Virus record (IMG/VR): IMGVR_UViG_3300014775_000324
Coordinates: 1 to 27,296 of that record
Reading direction: 5' to 3' (one strand)
DNA length: 27,296 bases
From: a virus
Taxonomy: Duplodnaviria; Caudoviricetes
Shown here: positions 5,506 to 27,296 of the stretch, in pieces
Position numbering within the stretch: the first letter of the stretch is position 1
How the letters are laid out: every line of letters begins with the position of its first letter
Program-made: the position numbers and the translations under genes
The notes under the pieces: model-generated
What the model saw: only the letters and a program-made list of their open reading frames with translations
Database searches by the model: none
What the model was told of the DNA's origin: nothing

Positions 5506-5523
5506 ATAAATTGAATATAATTA

Positions 5524-5550: not shown

Positions 5551-5555
5551 TATTT

Positions 5556-7353: not shown

Positions 7354-7358
7354 ATTAA

Positions 7359-9002: not shown

Positions 9003-9133
9003 TGTGTAAATTGTTTGTATGCTTCTTTTATAGATTCAGGATATTTGTTTTTACCTAAAGCTATATCTATGTGTTGTCCTTTCCATTTCTCGCTTCTTGC
9101 GAACTCCAATAAATCTAAAATATTACTAATCAT
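8981..9133 (-). CDS. Small hypothetical protein (50 aa)
   Basis: Not in ORF track. MISNILDLLEFARSEKWKGQHIDIALGKNKYPESIKEAYKQFTQWQLKRQ fills the gap and overlaps both neighbours. Confidence 0.6.
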   Translation of the reverse strand: MISNILDLLEFARSEKWKGQHIDIALGKNKYPESIKEAYKQFTQWQLKRQ

Positions 9134-12358: not shown

Positions 12359-12364
12359 ATCTTA

Positions 12365-14472: not shown

Positions 14473-14923
14473 AAATAGTCATATCGTTTTGTACTACTAC
14501 ATCAAAGGTAGCTGCCCATCCTGCTAACTTGTTTTCAAATCTATCTACAAAAGGTTCACAAGTAACATCTCCCTCTATTTGATAAAGGTCTGTATATAGG
14601 TCTCCTCTTTGTAGTGTATTTATTACTCTTGTTTGTAAAGCTAATTGAGTGTTTAGTACGTCTTGTTCATTGTCGTTTCCTACAAACACATCTGTAACCT
14701 CATCTTTACTAACATCTACAATATCCATAGAAAGAATACTGATATTAAAAGTAAGCGTTTTAGTTCCTACTATTGTATTGTTTACTGTGATGTGAGATAA
14801 AGGAAAGATGGTTTGCTTGTTGAGGTCTACATCATCAATAGAACCAAATGTAACTGTATTTACAAATGGCTCTGCTATGAGTGCATCTTTTAGTTTATCT
14901 GTTACGTTGTAAAACCCTTTCAT
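14465..14923 (-). CDS. Tail terminator-like protein
   Basis: 152 aa, acidic. FPLSHI and CEPFVDRFENKLAGW motifs, in the tail module. Confidence 0.55.
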   Translation of the reverse strand: MKGFYNVTDKLKDALIAEPFVNTVTFGSIDDVDLNKQTIFPLSHITVNNTIVGTKTLTFNISILSMDIVDVSKDEVTDVFVGNDNEQDVLNTQLALQTRVINTLQRGDLYTDLYQIEGDVTCEPFVDRFENKLAGWAATFDVVVQNDMTICD

Positions 14924-15171
14924 CGTTTCTTAATCAGTTTCTTTTCTAATTCTATTTTATCTTTTTCAAATGCTAAATACATTAAGCACTCGTGTACGTT
15001 GAGTTTGGTAATTTTATCAAACTTGGTAACATCCCCTTTAGCGATTCCATAGATTGATTGATACCAACCCCACTTGCTTCCAAACGTTCCTTCTGATGAG
15101 TAGTCAGATTGTTCACTTCCTTCTGTAAATAGTTCAGGATAGTTGTTATTAACTCGCTGTTTAAATTCCAA
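14920..15171 (-). CDS. Tail assembly chaperone C-terminal extension (gpGT-like, reached by -1 frameshift)
   Basis: In the -1 frame relative to 14982..15653 and called from the T9 run. Its stop is coupled (ATGA) to the next gene. Confidence 0.7.
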   Translation of the reverse strand: MEFKQRVNNNYPELFTEGSEQSDYSSEGTFGSKWGWYQSIYGIAKGDVTKFDKITKLNVHECLMYLAFEKDKIELEKKLIKKR

Positions 15172-15653
15172 AAAAAAACCATAGCAGAAAAGACCACATC
15201 TAAAGGTGCATCTTTCATTATATCGTTCATTCCTTTGTACTTATCTATTGTGTATTTGTGTCCTTTCTTAAACGTGATTGGTCTATATAAAACACTCATT
15301 GCTTTGTGCATACTTTGCCAATCTCCCAAGTTCTCATCAAGGTCTACATACTCGCCTAAAGTCATATCATCCAATACAGGTATAAATCCGTATTCTACGC
15401 CTCTTAAATTAAACGTAGGTATTAAACTATGCTTTGTATCAAATACTTTGTTTAGATGTACTGCAATCTCCTGTACGGACTTGTATTTAATCTCTGCTAC
15501 GTCTTTTAAATCAAGATTGCAAAATATCTCTACCATCTTCTGAAGTAGAAAAGTAGAACCTTGATTTTCTTCTGTGTTTAGCTTTTCAAATCTTTGATAC
15601 TGTGCTAAAGTTATTTCGTTTAGCGAGTCAGGTACGTTTATTTCAACTTTCAT
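14982..15653 (-). CDS. Tail assembly chaperone (gpG-like)
   Basis: 223-aa ORF containing GTT TTT TTT TGG slippery site at codons 159-162. Confidence 0.7.
   Translation of the reverse strand: MKVEINVPDSLNEITLAQYQRFEKLNTEENQGSTFLLQKMVEIFCNLDLKDVAEIKYKSVQEIAVHLNKVFDTKHSLIPTFNLRGVEYGFIPVLDDMTLGEYVDLDENLGDWQSMHKAMSVLYRPITFKKGHKYTIDKYKGMNDIMKDAPLDVVFSAMVFFWNLNSELITTILNYLQKEVNNLTTHQKERLEASGVGINQSMESLKGMLPSLIKLPNSTYTSA
15170..15179 (-). other. Programmed -1 ribosomal frameshift site (T TTT TTT)
   Basis: A9 at 15170-15178 on the plus strand gives an in-frame X XXY YYZ heptamer at 15177-15171. Confidence 0.7.
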
Positions 15654-15658
15654 ATAAT

Positions 15659-15685
15659 TACAATAAATTAATTACTAATATGTAT
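15659..15685 (-). promoter_or_regulatory. Variant late promoter ATACATA-N14-ATTGTA (tail operon)
   Basis: Same downstream box and spacing as the five perfect copies, 4/7 match in the upstream box. 5 nt upstream of ATG 15653. Confidence 0.55.
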
Positions 15686-15692
15686 AAAAAGG

Positions 15693-15712
15693 AAAAGGTA
15701 GCCAATGCTACC
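15693..15712 (-). terminator. Rho-independent terminator ending the small-ORF island
   Basis: GGTAGC-ATTG-GCTACC followed by TTTTCCTTTTT on the minus strand. Confidence 0.65.
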
Positions 15713-15739
15713 CAATCCTCAAACAAAAATCAAATGAAA

Positions 15740-15973
15740 CTACTTATTGATAAATCTTTCGTAAGCGTATTTATAAGCTGTTATTATTGCTTCACTCAGT
15801 TCTATACTATTTTGTTTATATGTTTCACTTCCTTCTACTTTTCCTTTGCCTTTGTAATCTATATATAATGTAACGTCAACTCCTTTTTGTACTCCACGCT
15901 TTGTAGGTTTTTGCACTACATATATATCATCATCCCAGCAGGCTTTTACCTTGTTAATGTAATCTATATCCAA
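15740..15973 (-). CDS. Hypothetical protein (77 aa)
   Basis: ORF track (TTG start), followed by a terminator. Confidence 0.6.
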   Translation of the reverse strand: MDIDYINKVKACWDDDIYVVQKPTKRGVQKGVDVTLYIDYKGKGKVEGSETYKQNSIELSEAIITAYKYAYERFINK

Positions 15974-16110
15974 CCTAGATCATATCTTAAATATAAAAAC
16001 CCATATAAAAAAGCATACATACTAGCGTAAGCTATAGCGTTAAATAGTATAGCTAATAATATATTCTTTTTTGTAAACACTTGTTTTAATATTTGTATAT
16101 CTTCTTTCAT
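15964..16110 (-). CDS. Small membrane protein (48 aa)
   Basis: Not in ORF track. MKEDIQILKQVFTKKNILLAILFNAIAYASMYAFLYGFLYLRYDLGWI, one hydrophobic segment. Confidence 0.6.
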   Translation of the reverse strand: MKEDIQILKQVFTKKNILLAILFNAIAYASMYAFLYGFLYLRYDLGWI

Positions 16111-16112
16111 AA

Positions 16113-16262
16113 TTAAAATAAATTAGTTTTACCAAATGTAGGGTACACTTCTGCATCCCGCAGCCTATCTAATTTTGTGGCTTCACGAATCTCACGTTCT
16201 AACTCTGCTTGGCGTTTTGCCTTTATTAAGTTGTGTAAAAACTGTTCTCTTGATTTGCTCAT
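16113..16262 (-). CDS. Small hypothetical protein (49 aa)
   Basis: Not in ORF track. MSKSREQFLHNLIKAKRQAELEREIREATKLDRLRDAEVYPTFGKTNLF abuts the next ORF. Confidence 0.6.
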   Translation of the reverse strand: MSKSREQFLHNLIKAKRQAELEREIREATKLDRLRDAEVYPTFGKTNLF

Positions 16263-16274
16263 AATATAAGTATT

Positions 16275-16296
16275 AAAAAGGGGAGTTGCCTCCCCC
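16275..16296 (-). terminator. Rho-independent terminator with GCAA tetraloop
   Basis: GGGGAG-GCAA-CTCCCC followed by TTTTT on the minus strand. Confidence 0.85.
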
Positions 16297-16302
16297 TATT
16301 AT

Positions 16303-16551
16303 TTATTTTACTTCTATACTATTTATTAATTCTGTAGTACAATACATAGGCTCCCATCCTTGTTCTATAGTTAAATCTTCTTGACTATTATAAACTAATC
16401 CTTTTTTAATTAAAGAACTTAATACTCCTTTTTCCTCGTCATTAAGCCCTAACCCATCAAATTCTGAGTAACCTGTGTTTTTACCATCTACTTCACTATC
16501 TATTATTTCGTGTAAAAGTAAATTTTCTTTTTTTGTAATTTGTGTTTTCAT
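16303..16551 (-). CDS. Hypothetical acidic protein (82 aa, possible winged helix)
   Basis: ORF track. KGVLSSLIKKGLV resembles a wHTH end. Has its own upstream promoter-like box and a downstream terminator. Confidence 0.6.
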   Translation of the reverse strand: MKTQITKKENLLLHEIIDSEVDGKNTGYSEFDGLGLNDEEKGVLSSLIKKGLVYNSQEDLTIEQGWEPMYCTTELINSIEVK

Positions 16552-16576
16552 TGTATAGTTGTTTTTGTTTTACTTT

Positions 16577-16585
16577 GTAAATATA
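16577..16585 (-). promoter_or_regulatory. Putative early promoter -7 box TATATTTAC
   Basis: Variant of the Bacteroidota TAnnTTTG box. Same 9-mer is intergenic at 21259 and 25628. Confidence 0.45.
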
Positions 16586-16630
16586 TAAACATTTTTTTAA
16601 CTATTATATATTTTAACAAAATTTTAACAT

Positions 16631-17800
16631 TTAGTAAATGTAATATTCTCCTTTATTTGGATTTTCTAACTGATCTGTTAGTACATATCTTGCAGCATCT
16701 ATACAGTCAGGATGCGCACCTGTAGGCTTTTGTAGTGTATTGCCTTCTTTATCTTTTGCCCACACATATCCCTGTAGTTCTCTTTTTAAATTCTTGCTTC
16801 TTGCAGTTATATATATTTCGTTCTGGTTTATTAGATTAATACCATATACTACACTATCCCTGCCTTTGCTTACAGGGTAAACAGTATGCCCATAACCATT
16901 TAGTTCAGCAATACTTTTAGGTTCAGCTGAGTCTGCTATAATGTTTTCTTTTATATCATGCTGGCTTAAGAATCTACTTATATCCCTGTTTAGCATTCCT
17001 TTCTTATAAAGCACCTCATCAAATATATAAGCATCATTCCATTTGTAAAGTGCTATCAAGGTAGTAGGGTCAACTGAATAACCAAAGTCCATACCATACG
17101 CTAATAGTCGTGCATCTTCAGGTAGATTGTCTATTTCTTTCCAATCAGGAATACATACACCCTCTAACGAACCTGTTTCTCCCAATCCATATACCCTCCA
17201 CCAATTAGCCCAATAGGTTGATATCTTTGCTTTCTCTTTAGCTTTTTCTATTTCTTTTACAATACTTTCAGGTAGCGCATCATTGTCTTTATAAGTTAAT
17301 GTAATGTAATCCGTATCAGGTTTGCCTATTAGTTCTTTATCTACCCAAAACAAGTTAGAAGGGTTATAATCTAACCAGATAATCCCGCTTGTTCTTACCG
17401 CTAACTGTGTGTAAGCATCAAAAGGTACATTGTTGCACTCGTTAATATATAGGTCAGTCCGCCTTGCACCTCTTAGTTTATCAGGTTGGTCAGTAGAAAA
17501 GAATTCTATATAGCTATTATTTGAAAAGGTGTATTTTAAGGTACTTTTATTAAACTGACCATCTTTATACCTATGTTGACCTTTTAAAATGCCTAAGAAG
17601 TCCTTTAAAGCGCCTCTACGAAGGTGTGGTATGCTTTCACTTACTACGCTTATTTCTTTATTAGGGTTTTTTACTGCATAGTCTATTAAGATAGCTAATA
17701 TAGATATAGTTTTACTTGCTGAGGTTCCACCCTTAACAATTCGTATCCTACTATTTAGCTTCCTAAGTTTTTTAGTCGCAATAGTTTGCTTAATACGCAT
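16631..17800 (-). CDS. terL: Terminase large subunit (PBSX/Terminase_3 family)
   Basis: Walker A GGTSASKT, Walker B LYINE, nuclease GMDFG, DSAEP and DCIDAARY motifs. Confidence 0.95.
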   Translation of the reverse strand: MRIKQTIATKKLRKLNSRIRIVKGGTSASKTISILAILIDYAVKNPNKEISVVSESIPHLRRGALKDFLGILKGQHRYKDGQFNKSTLKYTFSNNSYIEFFSTDQPDKLRGARRTDLYINECNNVPFDAYTQLAVRTSGIIWLDYNPSNLFWVDKELIGKPDTDYITLTYKDNDALPESIVKEIEKAKEKAKISTYWANWWRVYGLGETGSLEGVCIPDWKEIDNLPEDARLLAYGMDFGYSVDPTTLIALYKWNDAYIFDEVLYKKGMLNRDISRFLSQHDIKENIIADSAEPKSIAELNGYGHTVYPVSKGRDSVVYGINLINQNEIYITARSKNLKRELQGYVWAKDKEGNTLQKPTGAHPDCIDAARYVLTDQLENPNKGEYYIY

Positions 17801-17801
17801 A

Positions 17802-18050
17802 CTAATCTACAAACAATGGTAAGTCCTCATTGATTGTAATATCCTTAGTTTCTTTTGGTTTACCTATGTAGTATTCTAAGTAAAGTTTAATCCAACGTAT
17901 GTCGCCAGACTCTACACCTGTTTTTAAAGCTTGTAATGCAGTATCTTCTAATGGTGATAATCTTTCTACAAGTTTTATTTCATCACTCTTAGGTTTTCTT
18001 CCTGCGAATCCTTTTGTAGAATGTCCTCCATTATTCTTTCTACCATCCAT
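17802..18050 (-). CDS. terS: Putative terminase small subunit
   Basis: 82 aa directly upstream of terL, basic NNGGH...AGRKPK N-terminus. Confidence 0.6.
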   Translation of the reverse strand: MDGRKNNGGHSTKGFAGRKPKSDEIKLVERLSPLEDTALQALKTGVESGDIRWIKLYLEYYIGKPKETKDITINEDLPLFVD

Positions 18051-18077
18051 AATTAAAAAAGATTAATTAATTAATTA

Positions 18078-18104
18078 TACAATAAACTTTTTAACTATTT
18101 GTTA
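18078..18104 (-). promoter_or_regulatory. Putative late promoter TAACAAA-N14-ATTGTA (terminase operon)
   Basis: Exact motif, 27 nt upstream of ATG 18050. Confidence 0.75.
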
Positions 18105-18549
18105 ATTCAAATTGTTCAGCTAGTTCTGGGTTAACCTTTTTTAATTGTGCTTGCAAGTACTTATATCTTATTTCTATATCTTTATTTTTTTTATCTAATA
18201 TCTTATATTGTCCTTCCCAAAACCCTTCTAATGTTTGTGCTTTTGTAAATGCTTCAGGATTTAATTCTTTAGCCCTATTGAATCTTTCACTTAATATTAA
18301 ATAGTCCTGCTCAAATTCTTTATCAAATTTAATCCAGTCTTTAGCTTTTCTTGTAAAATATAATACAGTAGCATGATCTTTATCCATTGTTTTACCTATT
18401 GCACTTAATGAGTAATGTGTATTATCTCTTAATAGTTTATAATAGATTGCTCTTGCTTCTATATATGGTCTACGTCTTGTTACTTTAGTAATATCTAATT
18501 TATAATAATCTTCTATTATTTCCCTAACTATTCTTTGTGTGTTCGTCAT
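18091..18549 (-). CDS. DnaA C-terminal (domain IV)-like HTH protein
   Basis: TRRRPYIEAR...YSLSAIGKTMDKDHATVLY matches the DnaA domain IV signature (SLxxIGxxxxRDHTTV). Confidence 0.8.
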   Translation of the reverse strand: MTNTQRIVREIIEDYYKLDITKVTRRRPYIEARAIYYKLLRDNTHYSLSAIGKTMDKDHATVLYFTRKAKDWIKFDKEFEQDYLILSERFNRAKELNPEAFTKAQTLEGFWEGQYKILDKKNKDIEIRYKYLQAQLKKVNPELAEQFELTNS

Positions 18550-18745
18550 TTTCTATTTTATTAATTATATCTTTTATTGTCATAAATCCTGCTTCGTGTA
18601 TAGCTTTTAATATTCCTGCACACGCTTCGTACTCCTCTGCTTTTTCATATAAGTCTATAGCTTCCTCTAACTCCGTAATACTTCTCCCATTAGCTATATC
18701 TAATAAAGCAAGGTTATAAAATTCATTTATTATACTTTTATTCAA
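18524..18745 (-). CDS. Hypothetical protein (73 aa)
   Basis: ORF track. UVR-like YEKAEEYEACA motif. Confidence 0.65.
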   Translation of the reverse strand: MNKSIINEFYNLALLDIANGRSITELEEAIDLYEKAEEYEACAGILKAIHEAGFMTIKDIINKIENDEHTKNS

Positions 18746-19775
18746 GAGTGTCTCTTATTACGTAAGTATTTATATCCTCTTCCATTTTGACAAAATACTT
18801 TTCAAAAATTTGTAATCCTGCTTCGAGTTTATACTTACCTGATTCATAAAAACTTTCTTCTACATCATATATTCCTAAATCTCCTGAAGATTTATCAATT
18901 ACAAAAAACTTAAAATCTTTCCAATGTATATTAAATAAATTACAGTAAATATATAATTGAACGTCGTAAGAATATTTTTTAGCTGACCATTTAAATCCTT
19001 TTAAATCACTTGTTGTTTTTAAATCTGCAATATAACCTTGTCCTAAAACATCTGCTTTAGCTCTAAAAGGATAGCCATGTAATATATCAAACGCGGGTTT
19101 TTCAAATTCCGCTCCTCTAGTTAATTCTTGCCATACATCATTTTGTAATAATGCATCCGCTGTATACATAGCTTTATCATATTCTTTTCTTGTAAATACA
19201 AAGTCAGGGCTGCCTACTTCTTTTACTTTATCTTTGTATGTTTTAGTTACGGCCGATTGAACCTCAACTATATGGCAAAGAGTATCTAATTTTTCAGGCT
19301 CTAATGCGGCTAAGTGTATTAGTCTTCCTATTTTAAATGCTCCACTATCTGATTTAAAATTTAAACTTCTTTGATAACTTTTAGGGGAATCTATTAATTG
19401 TTTTATAGCAGAACTACTTAAAGCATATTTACCTAGTTCACCATAATAAAAGCTATCATCATACATTTTTTTAATTAGCTCTTCTTTATCCCATACTTTA
19501 CCATTTAATAATTTTATTTTTTCTATTCTTTCTTTGCTTTTTATATAAATAGATTTCATATCCGCTACTGGTATAAAGCAAGTATCAGGTCCATTAAATG
19601 AAGGATTTAAATTAATTAATAATGCTTGTAATTCTTGATCAGTTGTAAATTCATAATTATCACTTCCTACAATAATATTAACACCTCCCTTTTTTTTGGC
19701 CCAATCCATAAAACCTATCTTAGGTGTTTTAAAAGTTATATGTTTCCAATCTGGTTTCTTTTCTACGTTTATCAT
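18738..19775 (-). CDS. PD-(D/E)xK exonuclease, RecE/ExoVIII-like (DUF3799), with N-terminal extension
   Basis: LSSSAIK, GRLIH, RAKAD, ADLKTT and YDVQLYIY motifs. Confidence 0.85.
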   Translation of the reverse strand: MINVEKKPDWKHITFKTPKIGFMDWAKKKGGVNIIVGSDNYEFTTDQELQALLINLNPSFNGPDTCFIPVADMKSIYIKSKERIEKIKLLNGKVWDKEELIKKMYDDSFYYGELGKYALSSSAIKQLIDSPKSYQRSLNFKSDSGAFKIGRLIHLAALEPEKLDTLCHIVEVQSAVTKTYKDKVKEVGSPDFVFTRKEYDKAMYTADALLQNDVWQELTRGAEFEKPAFDILHGYPFRAKADVLGQGYIADLKTTSDLKGFKWSAKKYSYDVQLYIYCNLFNIHWKDFKFFVIDKSSGDLGIYDVEESFYESGKYKLEAGLQIFEKYFVKMEEDINTYVIRDTLE

Positions 19776-20077
19776 TATTTATTTTTTACAAAAGTTCCAT
19801 TAATCATTTTACCCTTACGGCTTTTTATTTCTGCATAAGCTGATTCTATACAACCCTCAATACTTAATCCGCACAACTCAGCTAAATTAGTTAATACTAC
19901 TACACAATCCCCTATTGCATCTTCTATTTCAAATTTATTACTATTCAATATAGCTTTTGATAATTCTCCTGCTTCTTCAAGTAATTTAAGATATTGCGTT
20001 TTAGGATCCCCTTTTTCATAGATACCTCTTTCTCTTGCCCAATCTCTTATTGGTTCAAACTCGTTATTTAATATCAT
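19775..20077 (-). CDS. mazG: MazG-like nucleotide pyrophosphohydrolase
   Basis: KLLEEAGEL...DAIGDCVVVL...AYAEIKSRKG motifs. Confidence 0.88.
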   Translation of the reverse strand: MILNNEFEPIRDWARERGIYEKGDPKTQYLKLLEEAGELSKAILNSNKFEIEDAIGDCVVVLTNLAELCGLSIEGCIESAYAEIKSRKGKMINGTFVKNK

Positions 20078-20082
20078 TCTTT

Positions 20083-20841
20083 TTATTTTATTAATTCTGC
20101 TTTAATATAAGAATTACTTTTATAATTATCTAAATAATAATTATTATAGTCTCCTTTTAATTCTGGTAAATTAAATATATTATTATAAATATAATCATTT
20201 ACTGCGTCTATATGATTTAAATATATATGCGCATCAGCTAAATTTAAACCTAATGTATCGGGTATTAAATTACATTCTTTAGCTATAGTTATTAAAAATA
20301 ATGCTCCTACTATTATATCATAGGGCAAGCCTAAAAATAAATCCGAACTTCTAAAATGTATTGTTAAGTTTAATTTATTATTTATTCTTACAAAATTCAT
20401 TTGAGTATAGCAACAGGGCAAAGCTTGTTCTTCTAAGTCGCAAGGGTTCCATAAAGTAATAATTGCTCTTCTTGTATTATTTTTTATTTCATTAATACAA
20501 TATTCTACTTGATCTACTTTATTATTATAATTTTTAATTTGATAACCATAAACTTTTCCCAAAGAATTATTAATCGCAAAATCATCCCACCAGTTTACAT
20601 TGTTATTTTTTAAATACTCTAAATCAGTACGACCTTCGTATATCCATTTAAATTCGGTTAAAGCTTTATTAAAAAATATTTTTTTGCCAGTTAATATAGG
20701 AAAGCCTTTTGATAAATTAATATTTAAGGTTTTATTAAAAAGTTTAATAGTATCAACCTTTGTTCTATTTTTACAGCGCTCACCATACTGCAAAACAGTA
20801 AGCAATAATTCTTTATAATCTAATTCAAATTTATTGCTCAT
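20083..20841 (-). CDS. thyA: Thymidylate synthase family protein with Asn177-to-Asp substitution (possible dCMP methylase/hydroxymethylase)
   Basis: NRT, EFKW, VYG, TRR, ALPCC (C144), FRSSDLFLGLPYD (D175) and DAHIY align to E. coli ThyA C146/R166/D169/N177/H207/Y209 with a constant -2 offset. Confidence 0.9.
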   Translation of the reverse strand: MSNKFELDYKELLLTVLQYGERCKNRTKVDTIKLFNKTLNINLSKGFPILTGKKIFFNKALTEFKWIYEGRTDLEYLKNNNVNWWDDFAINNSLGKVYGYQIKNYNNKVDQVEYCINEIKNNTRRAIITLWNPCDLEEQALPCCYTQMNFVRINNKLNLTIHFRSSDLFLGLPYDIIVGALFLITIAKECNLIPDTLGLNLADAHIYLNHIDAVNDYIYNNIFNLPELKGDYNNYYLDNYKSNSYIKAELIK

Positions 20842-21094
20842 TGTTGTAATTATTTAAAGCAGCTATATATCCAACCGCATCTAATAAAGTATCTTCTTTT
20901 AAATTATATGCCATTCTACTAATTTTTAATGCAATCATACATTTATAAAAATCTTCTGTGGTTATTTCTTTATTGCATAACTCACTTGCAAATAAAGCAG
21001 CTTTACGCATTGATTCATTAAAAGGACCGTACTCACGTTCTTTTTCTTCAGATCTATTATTTATAATATCATCTGCTTTTTTTAAAATATTCAT
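20831..21094 (-). CDS. DUF6378-like all-alpha protein (possible dNTP pyrophosphohydrolase)
   Basis: ILKKADDIIN.R...YG...MIALKISR...DTLLDAVGY pattern. Overlaps the start of the thyA homolog. Confidence 0.7.
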   Translation of the reverse strand: MNILKKADDIINNRSEEKEREYGPFNESMRKAALFASELCNKEITTEDFYKCMIALKISRMAYNLKEDTLLDAVGYIAALNNYNNEQ

Positions 21095-21246
21095 AATTCT
21101 AAAAATTCTGTTTGTTCTTCTATTCTTCTGTCTAATTCTTGTTGAGCACGTTGACTTTCAGCTGTTAGTCTATTAGTATTTATTATATGTATTAAATCTT
21201 GCTCTGTAAGTTCTGACCAAAACCAGTTGTTATAATTAAATTGCAT
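21091..21246 (-). CDS. Small hypothetical protein (51 aa)
   Basis: Not in ORF track. MQFNYNNWFWSELTEQDLIHIINTNRLTAESQRAQQELDRRIEEQTEFLEL, ATGA-coupled to the next gene. Confidence 0.7.
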   Translation of the reverse strand: MQFNYNNWFWSELTEQDLIHIINTNRLTAESQRAQQELDRRIEEQTEFLEL

Positions 21247-21258
21247 ATTGTTGTTTTT

Positions 21259-21267
21259 GTAAATATA
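21259..21267 (-). promoter_or_regulatory. Putative early promoter -7 box TATATTTAC upstream of the nucleotide-metabolism cassette
   Basis: Intergenic, followed by AAAAACAAC leader as at 16577. Confidence 0.45.
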
Positions 21268-21272
21268 AACAA

Positions 21273-21401
21273 TTATTTAACATCTTCCTCTTTTGGAAAA
21301 ACTTTTTTTTCAATTTTATCTAATCTATGTAATGCAACAACTAATGCTTTTTGTGCAAGCTTTATATCGTGTTGCATTTTAATCAGTTTTATTTCTTTCA
21401 T
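21273..21401 (-). CDS. Small hypothetical protein (42 aa)
   Basis: Not in ORF track. MKEIKLIKMQHDIKLAQKALVVALHRLDKIEKKVFPKEEDVK. Confidence 0.6.
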   Translation of the reverse strand: MKEIKLIKMQHDIKLAQKALVVALHRLDKIEKKVFPKEEDVK

Positions 21402-21534
21402 TGTAATATATTTGGTTACATACTGCAAATCTTAGGTGTGGACTTTTATATTTTTCAGCTATTACTGGGTTTAGCAGACATTTTTCCATAAACTCTAGTC
21501 GGGTTTCCCCTGTTTTTAATTTTGGTAAAAGCAT
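21379..21534 (-). CDS. Small 2-Cys protein, paralog B (51 aa)
   Basis: MLLPKLKTGETRLEFMEKCLLNPVIAEKYKSPHLRFAVCNQIYYNERNKTD, paralog of 21564..21710. Confidence 0.65.
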   Translation of the reverse strand: MLLPKLKTGETRLEFMEKCLLNPVIAEKYKSPHLRFAVCNQIYYNERNKTD

Positions 21535-21547
21535 TATTTCTATCGTG

Positions 21548-21577
21548 CTACATTTTAATTAATTTAACTTCTTTCAT
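21548..21577 (-). pseudogene. Truncated duplicate of the 5' end of 21273..21401
   Basis: MKEVKLIKM* with TAG where the intact copy has CAA. Confidence 0.6.
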
Positions 21578-21710
21578 CTTTATATATTTGATTACATACT
21601 GCAAACCTTTGATCTACAGTCCTAAATTCTTTAATCATTTCTGGGTTTATCATACATCTTTGTACAAATTTCTGTTGAGTTTCCCCTGTTTTTGGTTTTG
21701 GTAAAGGCAT
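21564..21710 (-). CDS. Small 2-Cys protein, paralog A (48 aa)
   Basis: MPLPKPKTGETQQKFVQRCMINPEMIKEFRTVDQRFAVCNQIYKDERS, TAATG-coupled to the upstream gene. Confidence 0.75.
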   Translation of the reverse strand: MPLPKPKTGETQQKFVQRCMINPEMIKEFRTVDQRFAVCNQIYKDERS

Positions 21711-21970
21711 TATTTCTGTTGTTTTAATTTTTCTATATACAATACTGCATCCATTAATTCTTCTTGCAAATGGTTTAGGAACTTGTAGAATCCGTCAGGG
21801 CTATCGTAAAGAGTTGTTCCATATTTTACTATTCCATTCCTGCTGCGTTCCCTCATTTTACTAATTACCAATTCTACAATTACGTCTTTATACCTATCCT
21901 TATAAGTACTGTCCATTGTCCATCTGTCGCCAAATTGCATTTCTACCCACTTTCTTAAACTATCACTCAT
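21710..21970 (-). CDS. Hypothetical protein, possible all-alpha NTP pyrophosphohydrolase fold
   Basis: GIVKYGTTL...HLQEELMDAVLYIEK contains an EExxD acidic motif. Confidence 0.55.
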   Translation of the reverse strand: MSDSLRKWVEMQFGDRWTMDSTYKDRYKDVIVELVISKMRERSRNGIVKYGTTLYDSPDGFYKFLNHLQEELMDAVLYIEKLKQQK

Positions 21971-22058
21971 CTTTTTTTATATTATAAAATTCCCTAACTA
22001 ACATACCTTCGATTATTCTTAAGGTAATATAACCAAGTATTATTTTAAATACCAACAT
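21963..22058 (-). CDS. Possible small hydrophobic peptide (31 aa)
   Basis: MLVFKIILGYITLRIIEGMLVREFYNIKKDE fills the gap and overlaps both neighbours. Confidence 0.35.
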   Translation of the reverse strand: MLVFKIILGYITLRIIEGMLVREFYNIKKDE

Positions 22059-22359
22059 CTATTCTAGTTTTTAATTTTTGTATTTCTTCTTCTAATTCAA
22101 TTATTTTTTTTTCAGCTGTTCTTGCTCTTTCAACTGCTCGTATTTTATCTGACCTGTACTCCGAAAGTGATTGATCGTAAAAAAACCTATCTGATATAAG
22201 GTTTTGTACATAATAACCTATTTGCACTAAAGCGGCAGTTGAATCGTTTAAAGTAATATTATCAGGATACTTCTTTTTTAATTTAAGTATTACTTCACTT
22301 ACTAAGTTGTAATTAGTGTAATACTCTAATTCTTTAAGATTATCTATTTTTTTATTCAT
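22045..22359 (-). CDS. Hypothetical coiled-coil protein (104 aa)
   Basis: ORF track, co-oriented and tightly packed. Confidence 0.75.
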   Translation of the reverse strand: MNKKIDNLKELEYYTNYNLVSEVILKLKKKYPDNITLNDSTAALVQIGYYVQNLISDRFFYDQSLSEYRSDKIRAVERARTAEKKIIELEEEIQKLKTRIDVGI

Positions 22360-22376
22360 TGTTCTTTGTTTTGTAT

Positions 22377-22784
22377 TTACAAGTATTGATTATATACAGC
22401 TTGTAAATCTTTCCATACTACTTTAGCAAAACTACAGGGCGTGCATTCAACTTTAGTTTTAAATATTCTTTCATATATTGTTTTATACGTTTCTTGTTCA
22501 TCTGGTGTAAATTTGTGCTTTTTGGTATCTACAGCCATTTTGATTAAGTCAAACTCACTTTCTGTTAAACACTCAGGCTTTTTATACCTAAACATTTTAT
22601 TTAGTTTAACTTTTCGTTCATCACAACCGCAATCTTCACCAGCTAAAAATTTAACTGCTTTCTTTATACCTGTAGCTGTTGTAATTTTTTCTACAGTATC
22701 GCCAAGCCCTTCGCTTGCCGCTGCGTATTTAGCCTTCCATTCTTTGTACTCTTTTGTACGTTTGTCGCCTTTAAATTCTGTCAT
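22377..22784 (-). CDS. Hypothetical Cys-motif protein (135 aa)
   Basis: GLGDTVEKIT...DCGCDERK and CTPC motifs, overlaps the sigma gene end. Confidence 0.75.
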   Translation of the reverse strand: MTEFKGDKRTKEYKEWKAKYAAASEGLGDTVEKITTATGIKKAVKFLAGEDCGCDERKVKLNKMFRYKKPECLTESEFDLIKMAVDTKKHKFTPDEQETYKTIYERIFKTKVECTPCSFAKVVWKDLQAVYNQYL

Positions 22785-23319
22785 AATCTTTATTTTTGTA
22801 ATCTTCGTAATCTTCTTGAAATTTATCTTTTAATTCTTGTTTTGCATTTTTTAATGAATTAAATATACTAACCCAACTTATATTAGTTTCTGAAGCTATC
22901 CCTCTAATACTTAAATCTGAGTCTCTATACAAAGTAAATAATTTTTTTTCATACCATCGCCAACCTTCAATATGTTCATCAATCATTGTGCATATTTTAT
23001 GAAAAGCTACTTGTTCATCCATTTGCGAAGCATCTGGGATCTGTAGGGTAGTTTCGTCATCATCAATAGATATTTTAACAATCTTTCTTTTACTATTATA
23101 ATATTGGAAATAGATAGAACGAAAAGTAAAATACATATACCCCCTACTAACGACACCATCTCTAATAATCTTGCTTTCATCAGCATATTTATATATAGTT
23201 AAATATCCTTCTTGTACAATATCTTCCGCATAATCATATTCGCCAAAACTTTTTACAATAGCTACCCATTCATCGTGCCTTTCAGCCACTTTAGCTAGCC
23301 ATTCAGTTGGTTTATCCAT
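22771..23319 (-). CDS. Phage RNA polymerase sigma factor (ECF/sigma-70-like)
   Basis: Region 2 AEDIVQEGYL and region 4 HTH LSIRGIASETNISWVSIFNSLKNAK, 182 aa. Confidence 0.82.
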   Translation of the reverse strand: MDKPTEWLAKVAERHDEWVAIVKSFGEYDYAEDIVQEGYLTIYKYADESKIIRDGVVSRGYMYFTFRSIYFQYYNSKRKIVKISIDDDETTLQIPDASQMDEQVAFHKICTMIDEHIEGWRWYEKKLFTLYRDSDLSIRGIASETNISWVSIFNSLKNAKQELKDKFQEDYEDYKNKDYDRI

Positions 23320-23510
23320 ATCACATTAATACTAATTATACCTAACAAACATTGTAAGGTAATTTCATCTTCGTTTTCGTATTGTTCTTTGTGATATAAA
23401 AAGCCAAACATTATACCTTTAATAGGACTAATAATAATATCTGCACCTTTGTATTGACCTGTTATAATAAACACAAAAGCAATAATTAATAAAAGCCCTA
23501 TAAGTATCAT
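23295..23510 (-). CDS. Small membrane-anchored protein (71 aa)
   Basis: Hydrophobic N-terminus, ATGA-coupled to the helicase. Confidence 0.65.
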   Translation of the reverse strand: MILIGLLLIIAFVFIITGQYKGADIIISPIKGIMFGFLYHKEQYENEDEITLQCLLGIISINVIWINQLNG

Positions 23511-24418
23511 ATATTTAGTTTTTGTATTTTAGTTTTATTGTGCATTAAATCAGTACCCATAAATTCATATCCAATATTATTTATTTTCATTCTTAATTTT
23601 AAAGGCTGTTCAAAACTAGTTGGCCTCGCTCCGGTTTCGTTTTCTTTGATTTTTAAAATATGAATATTAGCATACATCCAATCTGTAGGGTGTTGTACAT
23701 ATCTATGAATACACCATATATCGTCTGCTCGTGAACTAATCTTAGAACCACCTTCAGCATCACTCATAGCTAATGGTCTTGTTAATCCTTCGTATTCGTG
23801 TCCTGAATGATGAACTTGGCGAAGTGCTGAGGTTACACCGTGAGCGTTAACACATATTTGCACATTATTTTTTTTTGTAAATATTCTTAACTCAGTTAAT
23901 ACCTGATAATCGTACTCGTGAGCATTACCTACCATTTTTAAAATTGCAGCATCTTTAGCTAAACTGTTATAAGGATCTATTAAAAATCCATCATAATTCC
24001 AAGCATCTTTTATTTGCTGTGCTTCTTTTAATAAACTCTTATAAGTATATAAATCTTCAACTTCTATTATTTTAAAATATTCATCAGACCATTTAACAGC
24101 TTGATTTATTTGTTCATCATTAGCTTGTTGAATTGGTTTACCCATATAAAATTCTATAATCTTTCTTAATATAGACTCAGGTGTATTTTCACTTGACCAA
24201 ATTAAAAATCTTAGATTATGCAATTTGGCCCATAATACATAAAAATAAATAAGCGTTGTTGTTTTTCCTACATTTGCATGACCTATAGCTATCAATAAAT
24301 TTTTCTTAAATCTTATATGCTCATCAATTTCAGGAACACCTATTTTTAATCCTTCTTTTATTCGACCATATTTAATATCTAATATTTTATCTTGTAAGCT
24401 CTTTGCCTGTGCTATCAT
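23507..24418 (-). CDS. DnaB-like replicative helicase (RecA-fold domain only)
   Basis: Walker A GHANVGKTT, WSSEN, Walker B LIDPYN, NAH, ADDIWCIHR and KIKE motifs. Confidence 0.85.
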   Translation of the reverse strand: MIAQAKSLQDKILDIKYGRIKEGLKIGVPEIDEHIRFKKNLLIAIGHANVGKTTTLIYFYVLWAKLHNLRFLIWSSENTPESILRKIIEFYMGKPIQQANDEQINQAVKWSDEYFKIIEVEDLYTYKSLLKEAQQIKDAWNYDGFLIDPYNSLAKDAAILKMVGNAHEYDYQVLTELRIFTKKNNVQICVNAHGVTSALRQVHHSGHEYEGLTRPLAMSDAEGGSKISSRADDIWCIHRYVQHPTDWMYANIHILKIKENETGARPTSFEQPLKLRMKINNIGYEFMGTDLMHNKTKIQKLNI

Positions 24419-24561
24419 ATACTTTTAGTTATAATATTATACTTTTTTTCCATTGCCTCTGACTGACCCTCTTCTTTTGGTAAATAATATCCTAATATAG
24501 GATTTACTTTATAATTCCAAAAATCAATAGGCATTTCTTCTCCATCTTTTAATCTTTTCAT
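24415..24561 (-). CDS. Small hypothetical protein (48 aa)
   Basis: Not in ORF track. MKRLKDGEEMPIDFWNYKVNPILGYYLPKEEGQSEAMEKKYNIITKSI, ATGA-coupled to the helicase. Confidence 0.65.
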   Translation of the reverse strand: MKRLKDGEEMPIDFWNYKVNPILGYYLPKEEGQSEAMEKKYNIITKSI

Positions 24562-24569
24562 AAAGGTAT

Positions 24570-24593
24570 AAAAAAAGGGGAACTTAATCCCCT
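24570..24593 (-). terminator. Rho-independent terminator after SSB-like gene
   Basis: AGGGGA-TTAAGT-TCCCCT followed by a T-run on the minus strand. Confidence 0.8.
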
Positions 24594-24599
24594 ATTAAA

Positions 24600-24932
24600 T
24601 TAAAAAGGTAAATCTGCTGTTTCTTCTCTTGCTGGATTTTGATCTGAATTATTTACATTACCTATAGTAGCTGTTATTTTCCAGCCATTAATACTAGTAT
24701 AATATTTACCATTATATTCTTTACCCCTTAAATTAATTCCTACTGTAACTGGGTTACCTACTTGAAAGTTATTTATTGCATTAATAGATTCACCCATAAA
24801 ATCAATAGCTAAATCTTGAGGATATTTTTCTGCAGTAGTTACAACGATAGTTCTTTTTGACCACTCGTTACCTGCTTTAGAAGTTCCTGACTCAATGTCT
24901 TGAATAATTTTGATGTTTCCTGTAATTTCCAT
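24600..24932 (-). CDS. DUF3127 family ssDNA-binding protein (Bacteroidota type)
   Basis: MEITG...GTSKAGNEW...YPQ...GKEYNGKYYTSINGWKI with acidic DLPF tail. Confidence 0.85.
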   Translation of the reverse strand: MEITGNIKIIQDIESGTSKAGNEWSKRTIVVTTAEKYPQDLAIDFMGESINAINNFQVGNPVTVGINLRGKEYNGKYYTSINGWKITATIGNVNNSDQNPAREETADLPF

Positions 24933-24989
24933 ATTTCTACTTTTATTGATTGATTATTATATTTAGTTATGTAATATACTTTTTTTATT

Positions 24990-25505
24990 CTACAATTTAG
25001 CAAGTTCATCCCATACTTCTTTTTTAGCGTTGTAATGGCTTTTAACTGTACTTAAAGATGTACCTGCTTTTATTTTATCTTTAATTGTATTAAATAAAGG
25101 TGTATTTTTATTTAAAAAAGGTTTTTGTGTTGTTACACCACTTGCTGTATTACCGTCGTCATCTTCCGCTTGTAAACCAAGTAATGATGTTAAAGTACCT
25201 CTTCTAAAATATGTAATACAAGCTAATTTTTTTTGAGGATCTGTAATTGATTCAGGTATTTTTAGCCAAGCCATATCGCTTGTTTCTGATTCTATACATT
25301 TTAAAATAGTAAATACTTTTCTTCCTCTTGTAGGCTGTGATAACAATATTTTGTGTTTTTCTAATAAAGGATTAAGTTGTTTAATTAAAGAGTTAATATC
25401 AAAATACTTTGAATTATAAAAAGGATTTTTTGCATCTTTACTAATTGCTCCTATTTCTTGTTGTAATAAAAACATTTTCTTGTGGATATTTGTTTCTTTG
25501 CTCAT
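24990..25505 (-). CDS. erf: ERF-family single-strand annealing recombinase
   Basis: KDAKNPFYNSKY, ITYFRR.TL.SLLGL and EDDDGN motifs. Confidence 0.85.
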   Translation of the reverse strand: MSKETNIHKKMFLLQQEIGAISKDAKNPFYNSKYFDINSLIKQLNPLLEKHKILLSQPTRGRKVFTILKCIESETSDMAWLKIPESITDPQKKLACITYFRRGTLTSLLGLQAEDDDGNTASGVTTQKPFLNKNTPLFNTIKDKIKAGTSLSTVKSHYNAKKEVWDELAKL

Positions 25506-25624
25506 TGTTTTAAATTTGAAATTAATTGTTGTTTTGCTTGTTCAAGCATTTCATTTTTCTTTTTTAATTCATATTGCAGCTCTTGTACCTTGCCATAGAG
25601 TTCTGCTTTTGTAAATTGTTCCAT
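25502..25624 (-). CDS. Small coiled-coil protein (40 aa)
   Basis: Not in ORF track. MEQFTKAELYGKVQELQYELKKENEMLEQAKQQLISNLKQ, ATGA-coupled to erf. Confidence 0.6.
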   Translation of the reverse strand: MEQFTKAELYGKVQELQYELKKKNEMLEQAKQQLISNLKQ

Positions 25625-25627
25625 ATC

Positions 25628-25636
25628 GTAAATATA
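25628..25636 (-). promoter_or_regulatory. Putative early promoter -7 box TATATTTAC
   Basis: Intergenic, just downstream of a terminator, 3 nt from ATG 25624. Confidence 0.45.
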
Positions 25637-25651
25637 TAAAAAAATTTTAAT

Positions 25652-25686
25652 AAAAAAAAAGAGGCAAGAAATTAATCTCACCCCCT
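25652..25686 (-). terminator. Rho-independent terminator after ninG
   Basis: GGGGGTGAGA-TTAATT-TCTTGCCTCT stem (G-U rich) followed by a long T-run. Confidence 0.65.
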
Positions 25687-25714
25687 TCTAACAAAGAACA
25701 ATATACAAGAATTA

Positions 25715-26107
25715 TCAAGTAAGCTTTTTCACTCTTTCATTGTAATCAGAAATCATTTCTTCTAACTCGATATTGGTAAATTTACGCAGTTCACGACTTT
25801 CTTCTAGTAATGTTTTAGATAAGTTATTACCAAGATATAAACTATATTTATATTGTTCACCTGCTCTATAAACGTTACAAGCCACACATTGAGGTTTTAC
25901 ATTACGCTCGTCCCAACGTATAGAGTAGTGTTTTCTACTCATAAAATGTCCTGCTTGTATTTCTTTCCAATGGAATTTCTTATTGCAAGTAACACAAGTA
26001 CAATATCCATTGTTGTCCGCATTGATTAATCTTATATACTGACTAAATACTACATCTAACTTTTTTACAAGTTTACTCCGTGTAGGTTTTTTAGCAGTTC
26101 TTGGCAT
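25715..26107 (-). CDS. ninG: NinG/Rap family recombination endonuclease
   Basis: LDVVFSQYIR, CVTC, AGHFMSR, RWDERN and QCVACN motifs. Confidence 0.88.
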   Translation of the reverse strand: MPRTAKKPTRSKLVKKLDVVFSQYIRLINADNNGYCTCVTCNKKFHWKEIQAGHFMSRKHYSIRWDERNVKPQCVACNVYRAGEQYKYSLYLGNNLSKTLLEESRELRKFTNIELEEMISDYNERVKKLT

Positions 26108-26116
26108 AGTTTTTTT

Positions 26117-26359
26117 TTAAGCATCCATATGGTTTAGAAGTAAATTACCATCGGTTTCATTAAAACCTTTTATTAATTTATATAAATGCTTACTATCTGA
26201 TTTAACTTTTTTCTTTTCTGTTTTAGTAGAATCTATTCCAAGATTTTGATACTGTATAGCATCCATTTCTAAAATAGCATCTGTTCTTTCTTTTACAGAT
26301 AATTGAAAATCTTTAGCAATTTTCTCTGCTAATCTTCTAATAGTTAAATCTTCAGTCAT
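26117..26359 (-). CDS. Hypothetical protein (80 aa)
   Basis: ORF track, first gene after a promoter-like box. Confidence 0.75.
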   Translation of the reverse strand: MTEDLTIRRLAEKIAKDFQLSVKERTDAILEMDAIQYQNLGIDSTKTEKKKVKSDSKHLYKLIKGFNETDGNLLLNHMDA

Positions 26360-26408
26360 TTTATATATATATTAAAGTTAGTAATTAATTACATTCCCAC
26401 TAACCCAC

Positions 26409-26416
26409 CAAATTTA
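26409..26416 (-). promoter_or_regulatory. Bacteroidota sigma-A -7 box TAAATTTG
   Basis: Exact TAnnTTTG match in the intergenic gap between lysis and replication modules. Confidence 0.55.
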
Positions 26417-26467
26417 CACGCTTTTTTTTTAAGATGTAAACTTTTTTAAAGGTAAGTTATTAACTTT

Positions 26468-26848
26468 TTATTTAACCTTGTCTTTTAACTTCTCGTAAGT
26501 CCTTAAACCACCGAGTCCTAACATACCCAAAAGAACAGTCATTAAATGTTCCATTTGTAAGGCAGGAGGAACTGTTTCAGGTTTAATAGCCCAAATAAAC
26601 AAATCCCTAATTACAAAGTTATATGCTAATGCTACTCCACAAACCCAACCTATAAAAGGTCTCCACCCTGCTACAAATACTGTGCGGTGTTGTGCTTCTA
26701 TTTCGTTAATTCTTGTTTGTATTTCTAATAGCTGATTAGGGTCAAGTTCTTTGCCTTTTATGGCTTCCCTAATTTCCCAAGCTAAATTACCTGCTACTGA
26801 CTTTCTTGCATTACCGCCTTTTAAAAGCCCTAATAATAATTTCCACAT
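26468..26848 (-). CDS. Holin, 3TM/GTA family (DUF3154)
   Basis: FVAGWRPFIGWVCG and LLGMLGLGGLRTYEK signature. Confidence 0.88.
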   Translation of the reverse strand: MWKLLLGLLKGGNARKSVAGNLAWEIREAIKGKELDPNQLLEIQTRINEIEAQHRTVFVAGWRPFIGWVCGVALAYNFVIRDLFIWAIKPETVPPALQMEHLMTVLLGMLGLGGLRTYEKLKDKVK

Positions 26849-27012
26849 TATTCGTTCAGCATTTTATTATACAGTATTTGTGCTAATCTAACTTCGTGTT
26901 TATTGTCTTTGCAGATGTCTTTTGTTAATTCTCTGTATTCAGCTATCTTTTGCTTTCTTGCACTTGCACAACTTAACATCGTTGCAGCAAGTAATATTAT
27001 TATTATTCTCAT
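26848..27012 (-). CDS. Small lipoprotein (54 aa), candidate spanin-like component
   Basis: Not in ORF track. MRIIIILLAATMLSC-ASARKQK... has a signal peptide II with Cys15, and its stop is TAATG-coupled to the holin. Confidence 0.7.
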   Translation of the reverse strand: MRIIIILLAATMLSCASARKQKIAEYRELTKDICKDNKHEVRLAQILYNKMLNE

Positions 27013-27127
27013 AGCGTTTGTTTGTTTGTTGGAGGATTGCCTCCGTTAGTTTGTCGATACTTTTGCGTATCTCTTTTAATTCGTTGCGAAGTCCGTTTGA
27101 CTTTACACTAATCGTATCTTTACTCAT
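26939..27127 (-). CDS. Hypothetical coiled-coil protein (62 aa)
   Basis: ORF track. The 3' 74 nt overlap the lipoprotein gene in another frame. Confidence 0.6.
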   Translation of the reverse strand: MSKDTISVKSNGLRNELKEIRKSIDKLTEAILQQTNKRYENNNNITCCNDVKLCKCKKAKDS

Positions 27128-27213
27128 TTCTTTTTAGCAGGTTTGTTTCTACCGTTTTTTTGCGCTCTTGTACAATGACTGTACTTACCTCTACGATTTA
27201 ATGCTTTACCCAT
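27124..27213 (-). CDS. Small basic peptide (29 aa)
   Basis: MGKALNRRGKYSHCTRAQKNGRNKPAKKK, ATGA-coupled to the next ORF. Confidence 0.45.
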   Translation of the reverse strand: MGKALNRRGKYSHCTRAQKNGRNKPAKKK

Positions 27214-27231
27214 AGCGTACTTCCTACAGTA

Positions 27232-27296
27232 TTAGTATGTCCATACAGAGTTTGGCTTTGAATCATCGGTATCACAATGGATAAAGGTTTTTGCAA
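27232..27296 (-). CDS. Endolysin, peptidase M15 family (C-terminal fragment)
   Basis: AKTFIHCDTDDSKPNSVWTY* has the FIHxD Zn-ligand motif and terminal WxY of M15_3 peptidases, near the holin. Confidence 0.7.
   Translation of the reverse strand, partial: AKTFIHCDTDDSKPNSVWTY

Follow-up and report, generated by a model that had tools for sequence, protein, structure and literature searches.

A 1.3-kb block of three co-oriented minus-strand open reading frames (ORFs) in a tailed-phage genome record (Caudoviricetes) likely encodes a pre-replicative pathway to 5-methylcytosine (5mC), and it lies in a locus where related phages exchange DNA-protection genes. The stretch analysed, here called the window, is the 27,296 nucleotides of IMG/VR record IMGVR_UViG_3300014775_000324. 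The cassette encodes a DUF6378 protein, an enzyme with the thymidylate synthase (ThyA) fold, and a MazG-family nucleoside triphosphate (NTP) pyrophosphohydrolase, placed as follows.

20083..20841, minus strand: ThyA-fold synthase, 252 aa, predicted 5-methyl-dCMP synthase (PF00303 E 2e-62; alignment, conservation, tree)
20317..20319, minus strand: codon GAT for Asp175, at the site that sets pyrimidine specificity (Asn177 in E. coli) and unchanged in 120/120 homologs (the best 120 of 821)
19775..20077, minus strand: MazG-family NTP pyrophosphohydrolase, 100 aa, predicted dCTPase (Pfam E 4e-6; PHROG MazG-like E 6e-36; PDB 1vmg E 8e-5)
20831..21094, minus strand: all-helical DUF6378 protein of 87 aa, whose gene overlaps the start of the synthase gene (Pfam E 6e-15)

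In the proposed pathway MazG would convert dCTP to dCMP, which the ThyA-fold enzyme is predicted to methylate with methylene-tetrahydrofolate. A kinase would then phosphorylate the product to 5-methyl-dCTP; this may be DUF6378, or else an enzyme of the host. Host polymerase would build the 5-methyl-dCTP into phage DNA. Such DNA would likely be shielded from most type II restriction enzymes, as is that of phage Xp12, which resists 196 of 218 of them (PMC7653180). We judge the whole chain, from MazG through synthase, DUF6378 or host kinase and host polymerase to restriction-resistant 5mC DNA, to be probable. Its enzyme activities are all predictions, drawn from directly observed residues, gene order, co-occurrence, slot swapping, the failure to recognise any polymerase, deaminase or P-loop kinase among near-complete relatives, and a pattern of restriction words. 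An earlier note on this DNA, made from its letters, had as its core claim dCMP C5-methylation for anti-restriction DNA modification. The claim is supported by published residue rules, a motif shared with Xp12, the shared slot and the word pattern. The note overstated the novelty of the Asp-type synthase, a class already described from coastal metaviromes.

A predicted dCMP-methylating synthase

The synthase keeps the full catalytic and phosphate-binding set (R21, E58, W80, Y94, R126, R127, C146, R166, S167, H207 and Y209 in E. coli numbering) and a ThyA-like C-terminus. Residues in its own numbering include C144, Y145, R164, S165, D167, G171-L-P-Y-D175, H205 and Y207. When it was aligned with ThyA, T4 gp42 and the Xp12 enzyme, D175 fell at E. 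coli N177, T4 gp42 D179 and Xp12 D196, L141 at E. coli L143 and D167 at D169, while Y145 replaced H147. Canonical ThyA has Asn177 and His147; here they are Asp and Tyr. The earlier note had read the catalytic set, the GLPYD motif and the GAT codon at 20317-20319 exactly so, and its placing of Asp175 opposite E. coli Asn177 and T4 gp42 Asp179, with Tyr at His147, agrees with the alignment. It had named a sequencing error at Asp175 as one way to be wrong. That was ruled out, because D175 is invariant in 120/120 listed homologs (homolog conservation counts here use the best 120 of 821) and in 80/80 viral loci (the synthase-selected loci, near-duplicates included). His147 is replaced by Tyr or Phe in 119 of the same 120 homologs. 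Codon 175 was also covered by contigs from three public seawater or aquaculture runs, with no change at it among the differences listed, a list that leaves aside 34 differences of lower support.

Published work ties Asp177 to dCMP preference, acidic residues at 143 to hydroxymethylation and Asn169 to 5-hydroxy synthases, position 143 being reported as merely correlating with product (PMC13326640). N177D turns specificity to dCMP (as cited in PMC8670742), and positions 177 and 147 best discriminated cytosine-modified from unmodified metavirome contigs (PMC8670742). Five of seven predicted synthases yielded 5mdC in E. coli, with Xp12 as the control (bioRxiv 2024.12.05.627091). The window enzyme has a non-acidic residue at 143 (L141) and Asp at 169 (D167), as methyl-type enzymes do. 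Because its L143/D169/D177 signature fits these rules, we predict that it is of the methyl type.

The closest functional models are Xp12 and PaMx74, phages whose cytosine is fully replaced by 5mC. Their synthases share with the window's the ThyA fold, Asp177, Asp169, the catalytic set and the motif RSSDxxxGLPYD, and an NTP-pyrophosphatase gene adjoins the synthase there too. Unlike the window, which has Tyr at 147, Xp12 has Pro. Xp12 also encodes its own deaminase, dihydrofolate reductase (DHFR), ribonucleotide reductase and DNA polymerase, none of which was found in the window's near-complete relatives. In a 48-row tree the window synthase fell in a starred 22-row Asp177 clade together with uncultured phage MedDCM-OCT-S28-C10, and this clade lay apart from that of Xp12 and closer to the Asn177 enzymes, a placement for which composition bias was flagged. 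We predict that the enzyme functions like that of Xp12; orthology to it is not supported by the tree.

Other known systems match in part. MedDCM-OCT-S28-C10 (AP013540, its gene annotated thyA) is the closest GenBank phage record, at 52.6% identity, and shares the L/C/Y/D/D signature; unlike the window it is a T7-like genome in which genes for an NTP pyrophosphatase, a P-loop kinase, a deaminase and a polymerase surround that for the synthase. The Asp177 homologs of the MetaGPA and IMG/VR studies, described from coastal and sewage viromes, have the same diagnostic residues and lie near MazG or phosphoribosyl-ATP pyrophosphohydrolase (PRA-PH) genes, an arrangement thus already known from coastal metaviromes (PMC8670742; bioRxiv 2024.12.05.627091). 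The assayed ones were chosen for a neighbouring deaminase, which the window cassette lacks. T4 gp42, gp56 and gp1 follow the same synthase-dCTPase-kinase logic, and gp42 has Asp179. However, gp42 is only 22% identical over 138 aa, is acidic at 143 (T4 Asp145 against window Leu141) and lacks the ThyA-type C-terminus, and T4 makes a hydroxymethyl product with its own polymerase. The 5-hydroxy-dCMP synthases of RB69 and DLP3 differ in having Asn at 169, where the window has Asp167. The enzyme class is therefore already known, and the minimal, polymerase-free, swappable layout is what is new. One cultured phage deserves mention here: in Salmonella phage ciri (Rosemountvirus; L241:1587-2471) a 'thymidylate synthase' reads L143/Y147/D169/D177 and adjoins a PRA-PH gene, and we predict from this signature that it is a dCMP methylase.

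Little else of a nucleotide pathway was recognisable. No kinase or polymerase family was found among the 40 window ORFs (family scan and PF02223 search), as the earlier note had said. Five methyl-type relatives of 29.5–31.9 kb (91–100% complete) hold 231 ORFs, and among the 129 representatives scanned there was no polymerase, kinase, deaminase, DHFR or glycosyltransferase; host polymerase would therefore insert the modified base, and the host would supply thymidylate. Nor was ribonucleotide reductase found in near-complete relatives. A deaminase was present in 0/15 methyl-type records, nine of them at least 90% complete, and in 1/5 hydroxymethyl-type records.

The slot and its restriction-word footprint

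The slot survey took in 76 of 80 loci found with the window's terminase (80–96% identity). Thirty-five of them cover the whole interval between the early genes and the terminase, and their contents were read by scanning one representative per cluster. The DUF6378-synthase-MazG order occurred in seven of the 35. The seven synthases comprised two of methyl type, four resembling T4 gp42 and one divergent. Among the four gp42-like loci, two carried an alpha-glucosyltransferase and one a pyridoxal phosphate (PLP) enzyme; the divergent one had an asparagine-synthase-like gene. Of the 28 relatives with no synthase, 23 instead had a C5 or N6/N4 methyltransferase, Mom, MT-A70, or a TET/JBP dioxygenase with a glycosyl- or amino-acid transferase, and five had no recognised modification gene in the slot. 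Ten long sister records had no synthase anywhere (0/10). Such a mixture of modification genes in one interval makes the locus a swappable DNA-protection slot, and of the contextual evidence this speaks most strongly against a role confined to thymidylate supply.

Several occupants of the slot are of interest in themselves. TET/JBP dioxygenase genes with a glycosyltransferase or an amino-acid:DNA transferase fill it in L095, L099, L102, L121, L132, L150 and L157. At L100:1549-4114 the same cassette frame holds the divergent synthase, with Arg at 143 and Asp at 177, together with a gene of the asparagine-synthase/glutamine-amidotransferase kind; the outcome is possibly a nitrogen-bearing cytosine modification. 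A hydroxymethylase-type cassette at L154:3662-8041, and likewise in L151 and L229-L238, is longer by about 2.7-3.2 kb, the additional genes coding among others for a PLP-dependent enzyme and for 300-aa proteins that carry no annotation; an undescribed cytosine hypermodification is possible there.

C-containing 4-bp palindromes are almost totally avoided in these phages, and the window is split in this respect. Over 1-15900 there were 0 GATC (46 expected), 0 CATG (38) and 0 CTAG (52), and over 15901-27296 there were 13 GATC (23 expected), 4 CATG (22) and 11 CTAG (28). The second part is listed as a feature.

15901..27296, no strand: half with the terminase and the early/replication genes, tolerant of restriction-type palindromes that contain C

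The boundary at 15900/15901 was drawn after the sites were seen. We also applied a fixed rule, with sequence 0.7-5 kb from the synthase counted as near and anything beyond as far. Five restriction-type words then occurred in the window at 23.3 per 10 kb near and 2.3 far (p = 6e-7), the words having been picked after a first look at the data; CTAG, outside the five, showed the same pattern. A hydroxymethyl relative with 90% terminase identity repeated it (p = 6e-14). Near exceeded far in 11/16 methyl records (Wilcoxon p = 0.006) and in 5/5 hydroxymethyl records, as against 6/10 synthase-less controls (p = 0.77). Three of the five hydroxymethyl records had no avoidance left at all (observed/expected 1.1-1.2). 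As a positive control, two carriers of a C5 methyltransferase, G011 and G012 (L136, L142), showed relaxed avoidance of CCGG, GATC and TCGA; the same two genomes are still without GGCC and CATG, which hints at the target range of that methyltransferase. The footprint backs protection and falls short of proof, being mixed across relatives.

Two other measures were discarded. Testing palindromes over 20-kb loci gave p < 0.001 for CCGG, GGCC and CGCG, but some contigs were counted twice there, and a whole-record test that was not significant has taken its place. Lower terminase GC content at third codon positions (GC3) in synthase-bearing loci (0.25 vs 0.30, p = 0.0009) was uncorrected for kinship and was dropped as evidence.

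Cassette neighbours, DUF6378 and the phosphorylation step

The three-gene order is well conserved. Among the 80 synthase-selected loci, MazG was found within 1.4 kb downstream in all 80, and the gene directly upstream encoded DUF6378 in 66, a 67-aa 'c13'-type protein in 13 and was cut off by a contig edge in one. This answers positively the co-occurrence of PYD-type homologs with MazG (80/80) and DUF6378 (66/80) that the earlier note had proposed as a check. Conversely, 80 DUF6378-selected loci, which overlap the first 80, had a synthase in 77, and the other three end within 3 kb. These 77 synthases were 62 of methyl type, 13 of hydroxymethyl type, one split with Asp177 in one half, and one short with Gly; Asp177 was thus found in 76/77 and Asn177 in none. 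In 31 long records MazG was present in 21/21 with a synthase and 0/10 without, and DUF6378 in 20/21 and 0/10. Two relatives have a split or truncated synthase (L187:5254-5998, L196:646-1071), which reflects either assembly error or cassette decay. The acidic metal-binding set of MazG (E34, E35, E38, D53, D57) was at least 95% conserved over 56 rows, in keeping with its Pfam, PHROG and 1vmg matches. The earlier note had the synthase flanked by NTP pyrophosphohydrolases; this is supported for MazG only, DUF6378 being at most a candidate.

The surrounding features are these.

18738..19775, minus strand: DUF3799 (RecE/exonuclease VIII-like) nuclease with an extra N-terminal domain (Pfam/PHROG)
21710..21970, minus strand: 'c13' family helical protein, 86 aa, weakly DUF6378-like (hhalign E 0.004, best of 15 comparisons)
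21258..21268, minus strand: AT-rich box within the gap that precedes the operon, no excess over chance

The nuclease extension (88 aa, about 19512-19775) was seen in 22 loci, all 22 with a synthase and a short MazG, and had no family match. We also tried it as a relative of the middle domain of long MazG fusions, and no such relation was detectable (E 0.14). Many other loci instead have a MazG of ~250 aa with an N-terminus that looks nuclease-like by eye. The c13 family occurs in most relatives whatever the cassette, and one of its subfamilies overlaps the synthase start where DUF6378 is absent.

DUF6378 has two candidate roles on present evidence, as a non-P-loop deoxynucleoside monophosphate (dNMP) kinase or as a second NTP pyrophosphatase. 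Its model is all-helical (pLDDT 93.6), with R14, E17, R20, Y22, G23, K57, R60, K66, D68, D72 and Y76 conserved. The basic set (R14, R20, K57, R60, K66) with D68 and D72 would suit a site for nucleotide phosphates, whether in a hydrolase or in a kinase. No P-loop (Walker A) was found in this 87-aa protein. Matches of the model to solved structures were at noise level: HisE 3c90 at Z 5.4 (rmsd 3.3, 71 aligned), and MazG 7ody and 1vmg at Z 5.0. Foldseek against the PDB gave nothing at E <= 0.001, a viral structure library returned DUF6378-like proteins only, and the Atlas returned DUF6378 clusters and, with those skipped, no usable match. Pfam at E <= 10 gave no nucleotide-enzyme family for 77 DUF6378 members, and alignment with the neighbouring MazG reached hhalign E 0.4. 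Fusions among 75 longer DUF6378 proteins joined it to MazG/PRA-PH (3), dUTPase (2), synthase (1) and uracil glycosylase (1).

Gene order in other phages with Asp-type synthases bears on the choice. The position directly upstream of the synthase is taken by a P-loop kinase in S28-C10 and, in RDJL1, by a PRA-PH fusion that matches dNMP kinases weakly (E 0.056). In JWX the occupant belongs to DUF6378 (Pfam E 3e-4; phrog_474 E 5e-8, also the window protein's family), and in Xp12 and PaMx74 it joins PRA-PH to a domain similar to DUF1599 (63 columns at hhalign E 5e-4, the best of 15 comparisons). The Xp12 protein, QNN97215 (L082:46207-46980), is annotated as a HAD hydrolase; it and PaMx74_53 (L247:3264-4001) are PRA-PH/MazG and DUF1599-like fusions. 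Xp12 induces a 5-methyl-dCMP kinase, although no account of one was found in the literature searched. That a P-loop kinase, DUF6378 or a DUF1599-like domain can take one position suggests a kinase role, and for the candidate DUF6378 this role fits gene order at least as well as a pyrophosphatase role would. Microbacterium phage Skylord, which has a distant DUF6378 and an annotated thymidylate kinase together, speaks against it.

DUF1599 (nucleotide modification associated domain 1) provided a further lead. Like DUF6378, DUF1599 and T7 gp1.7 (DUF3310, a non-P-loop kinase) are small all-helical domains beside thymidylate-synthase genes. Three features recur in DUF1599 and DUF6378 alike: a YG turn, a helix with KxxR and a last helix with D..Y. 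Direct homology between the two was not found (hhalign E 0.07), nor was a link of DUF6378 to T7 gp1.7/DUF3310 (hhalign E 0.26), and DUF6378 was absent from the top 50 viral fold matches of DUF1599, a tandem query that may disfavour short targets. Among 14 control genomes, B. thetaiotaomicron alone was without thymidylate kinase (Tmk) and alone had DUF1599. A sample of 151 genomes was drawn from the phylum to which a Flavobacterium metagenome-assembled genome (MAG; L314-L347, G031-G185) belongs: 35/36 with tandem DUF1599 lacked a strong Tmk match, whereas 113/115 others had one. This exclusion is probably one clade-level event. On this ground DUF1599 is a candidate for the dTMP kinase that Bacteroides/Flavobacterium-type bacteria seem to lack. 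Its best fold matches argue against a kinase: they are dimeric dUTPases (5myd Z 7.5, rmsd 4.0, 135 aligned), so DUF1599 is also compatible with a pyrophosphatase. Published accounts have DUF1599 near dUTPase and ThyX in Asgard viruses, and describe a Faecalibacterium phage in which DUF6378 adjoins ThyX.

The most far-reaching version would make DUF6378 the missing 5-methyl/hydroxymethyl-dCMP kinase, small, helical and non-P-loop, rendering the cassette self-contained and polymerase-independent, with DUF1599 as both Xp12's kinase and the thymidylate kinase of the Bacteroides/Flavobacterium group. We offer it tentatively, as a possibility that may well prove wrong. The papers found, with subscription papers mostly outside the search, named no function for DUF6378 and no tested activity for DUF1599, and held nothing relevant on a non-canonical thymidylate kinase or an Xp12 kinase; any of these may be in print.

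The window itself, 86% complete as a virus record, was annotated by Pfam/PHROG scans with genes for a portal, a terminase, a helicase, ssDNA-binding and Erf proteins, NinG and a holin. The sole GenBank phage matches of its capsid-like protein were Nonlabens phages P12024S/L, at 31.7% identity. Cassettes resembling the window's were found in contigs binned to Fluviicola, Flavobacterium and Cytophagales MAGs, and the best-matching public runs were seawater or aquaculture metagenomes. The host is probably a marine flavobacterium. The earlier note had also described a very AT-rich block with a promoter-like box upstream. The AT-richness is real (GC 0.24-0.26 in the cassette vs about 0.33), but it belongs to the whole early module, since cassette GC3 (0.15-0.16) is the same as in other early genes (0.13-0.19). 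The box at 21258..21268 resembles a Bacteroidota promoter element, and it did not stand out from chance: its pattern occurred twice against 0.72 expected, equalled in 18/100 shuffles, and sigma70-like sites numbered 24 against 25.6 expected.

Alternative readings and significance

5-methyl-dCMP might be only an intermediate that a host deaminase carries on to dTMP or dTTP, leaving phage DNA largely unmodified. Xp12-type phages do form dTTP by 5mdCTP deamination (bioRxiv 2024.12.05.627091). The AT-rich genome, the lack of a recognisable kinase and the full site avoidance kept in four methyl records would suit such a bypass. A PF00383 member was present in 41/41 genomes of the family around a Flavobacterium MAG, but PF00383 also matches in E. 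coli and so does not single out dCMP deaminase. We nevertheless think it unlikely, given methyl-type records free of deaminase (0/15), a cassette frame that also holds hydroxymethylase and glucosyltransferase, DNA methyltransferases in the same slot, no Asn177 ThyA there, and 10/10 sister records that do without any synthase. It is quite unlikely that the enzyme uses dCMP to make 5-hydroxymethyl-dCMP or another C5 product. Although hydroxymethylases sit in the same slot and residue 143 only correlates with product, Leu141 is kept, and so is Asp169, which counts against 5-hydroxy. The hydroxymethylase-type genes of relatives are short (211-227 aa, one of 293), read DCTDD at five signature sites and mostly branch with T4 gp42; the five methyl-type genomes also had no glycosyltransferase among their representative ORFs.

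A third reading, in which modified nucleotides mainly disturb the host pool or host DNA and substitution of phage DNA is low and incidental, we regard as very improbable. Against it, the slot alternatives are all self-protection genes, and the 3/5 hydroxymethyl-type relatives with no avoidance fit real protection. It would explain the incompletely relaxed site avoidance, the nuclease domain attached to the cassette in many loci, the reliance on host polymerase, and the failure to see a deaminase or P-loop kinase. That the gene encodes an ordinary dUMP-specific thymidylate synthase with an unusual residue has the slimmest chance of all. Databases label the homologs thymidylate synthase, the enzyme is closer to E. 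coli ThyA (31%) than to Xp12 (26.5%), and its clade lies with Asn177 enzymes, yet Asp177 is invariant and His147 replaced throughout the homologs compared (120 and 119 of the best 120), and N177D is the very change that switches specificity to dCMP.

Several observations weigh against the proposed 5mC pathway. The low identity to Xp12 is matched by the tree, where Xp12, PaMx74, RDJL1 and JWX form a separate 100/100 clade apart from the window enzyme, and for 2/7 predicted 5mdCMP synthases the published assay yielded no product (bioRxiv 2024.12.05.627091). The phosphorylation step is without a recognisable encoded kinase: neither a scan for Walker A motifs nor searches that used two phage kinase domains found a dNMP kinase in the 31 records or in Xp12. 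As for the footprint, the five words were a post hoc choice, whole-record avoidance in methyl and synthase-less records (0.35 vs 0.10) did not differ significantly (p = 0.08), and the mosaic word pattern could come from a module of another host's phage. Strong avoidance stays in four methyl records (G001 0.08, G016 0.03, G003 0.09, G002 0.15), where possible causes are recent gain of the cassette, a difference in host range or substitution that is only partial.

By itself the residue switch is nothing unusual, since the enzyme class is known. The 1.3-kb cassette may nonetheless suffice for 5mC in a genome copied by host polymerase. If so, this suggests that modified-base DNA is common among small marine phages whose synthase is annotated as plain thyA. 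That one locus exchanges at least eight DNA-protection chemistries provides a natural experiment on anti-restriction strategy, its footprint readable in restriction-word counts. A nucleotide kinase activity of DUF6378 or DUF1599, if confirmed, would give a function to two widespread protein families that have none assigned, and would fill an essential step for which Bacteroides-type bacteria seem to have no canonical gene.

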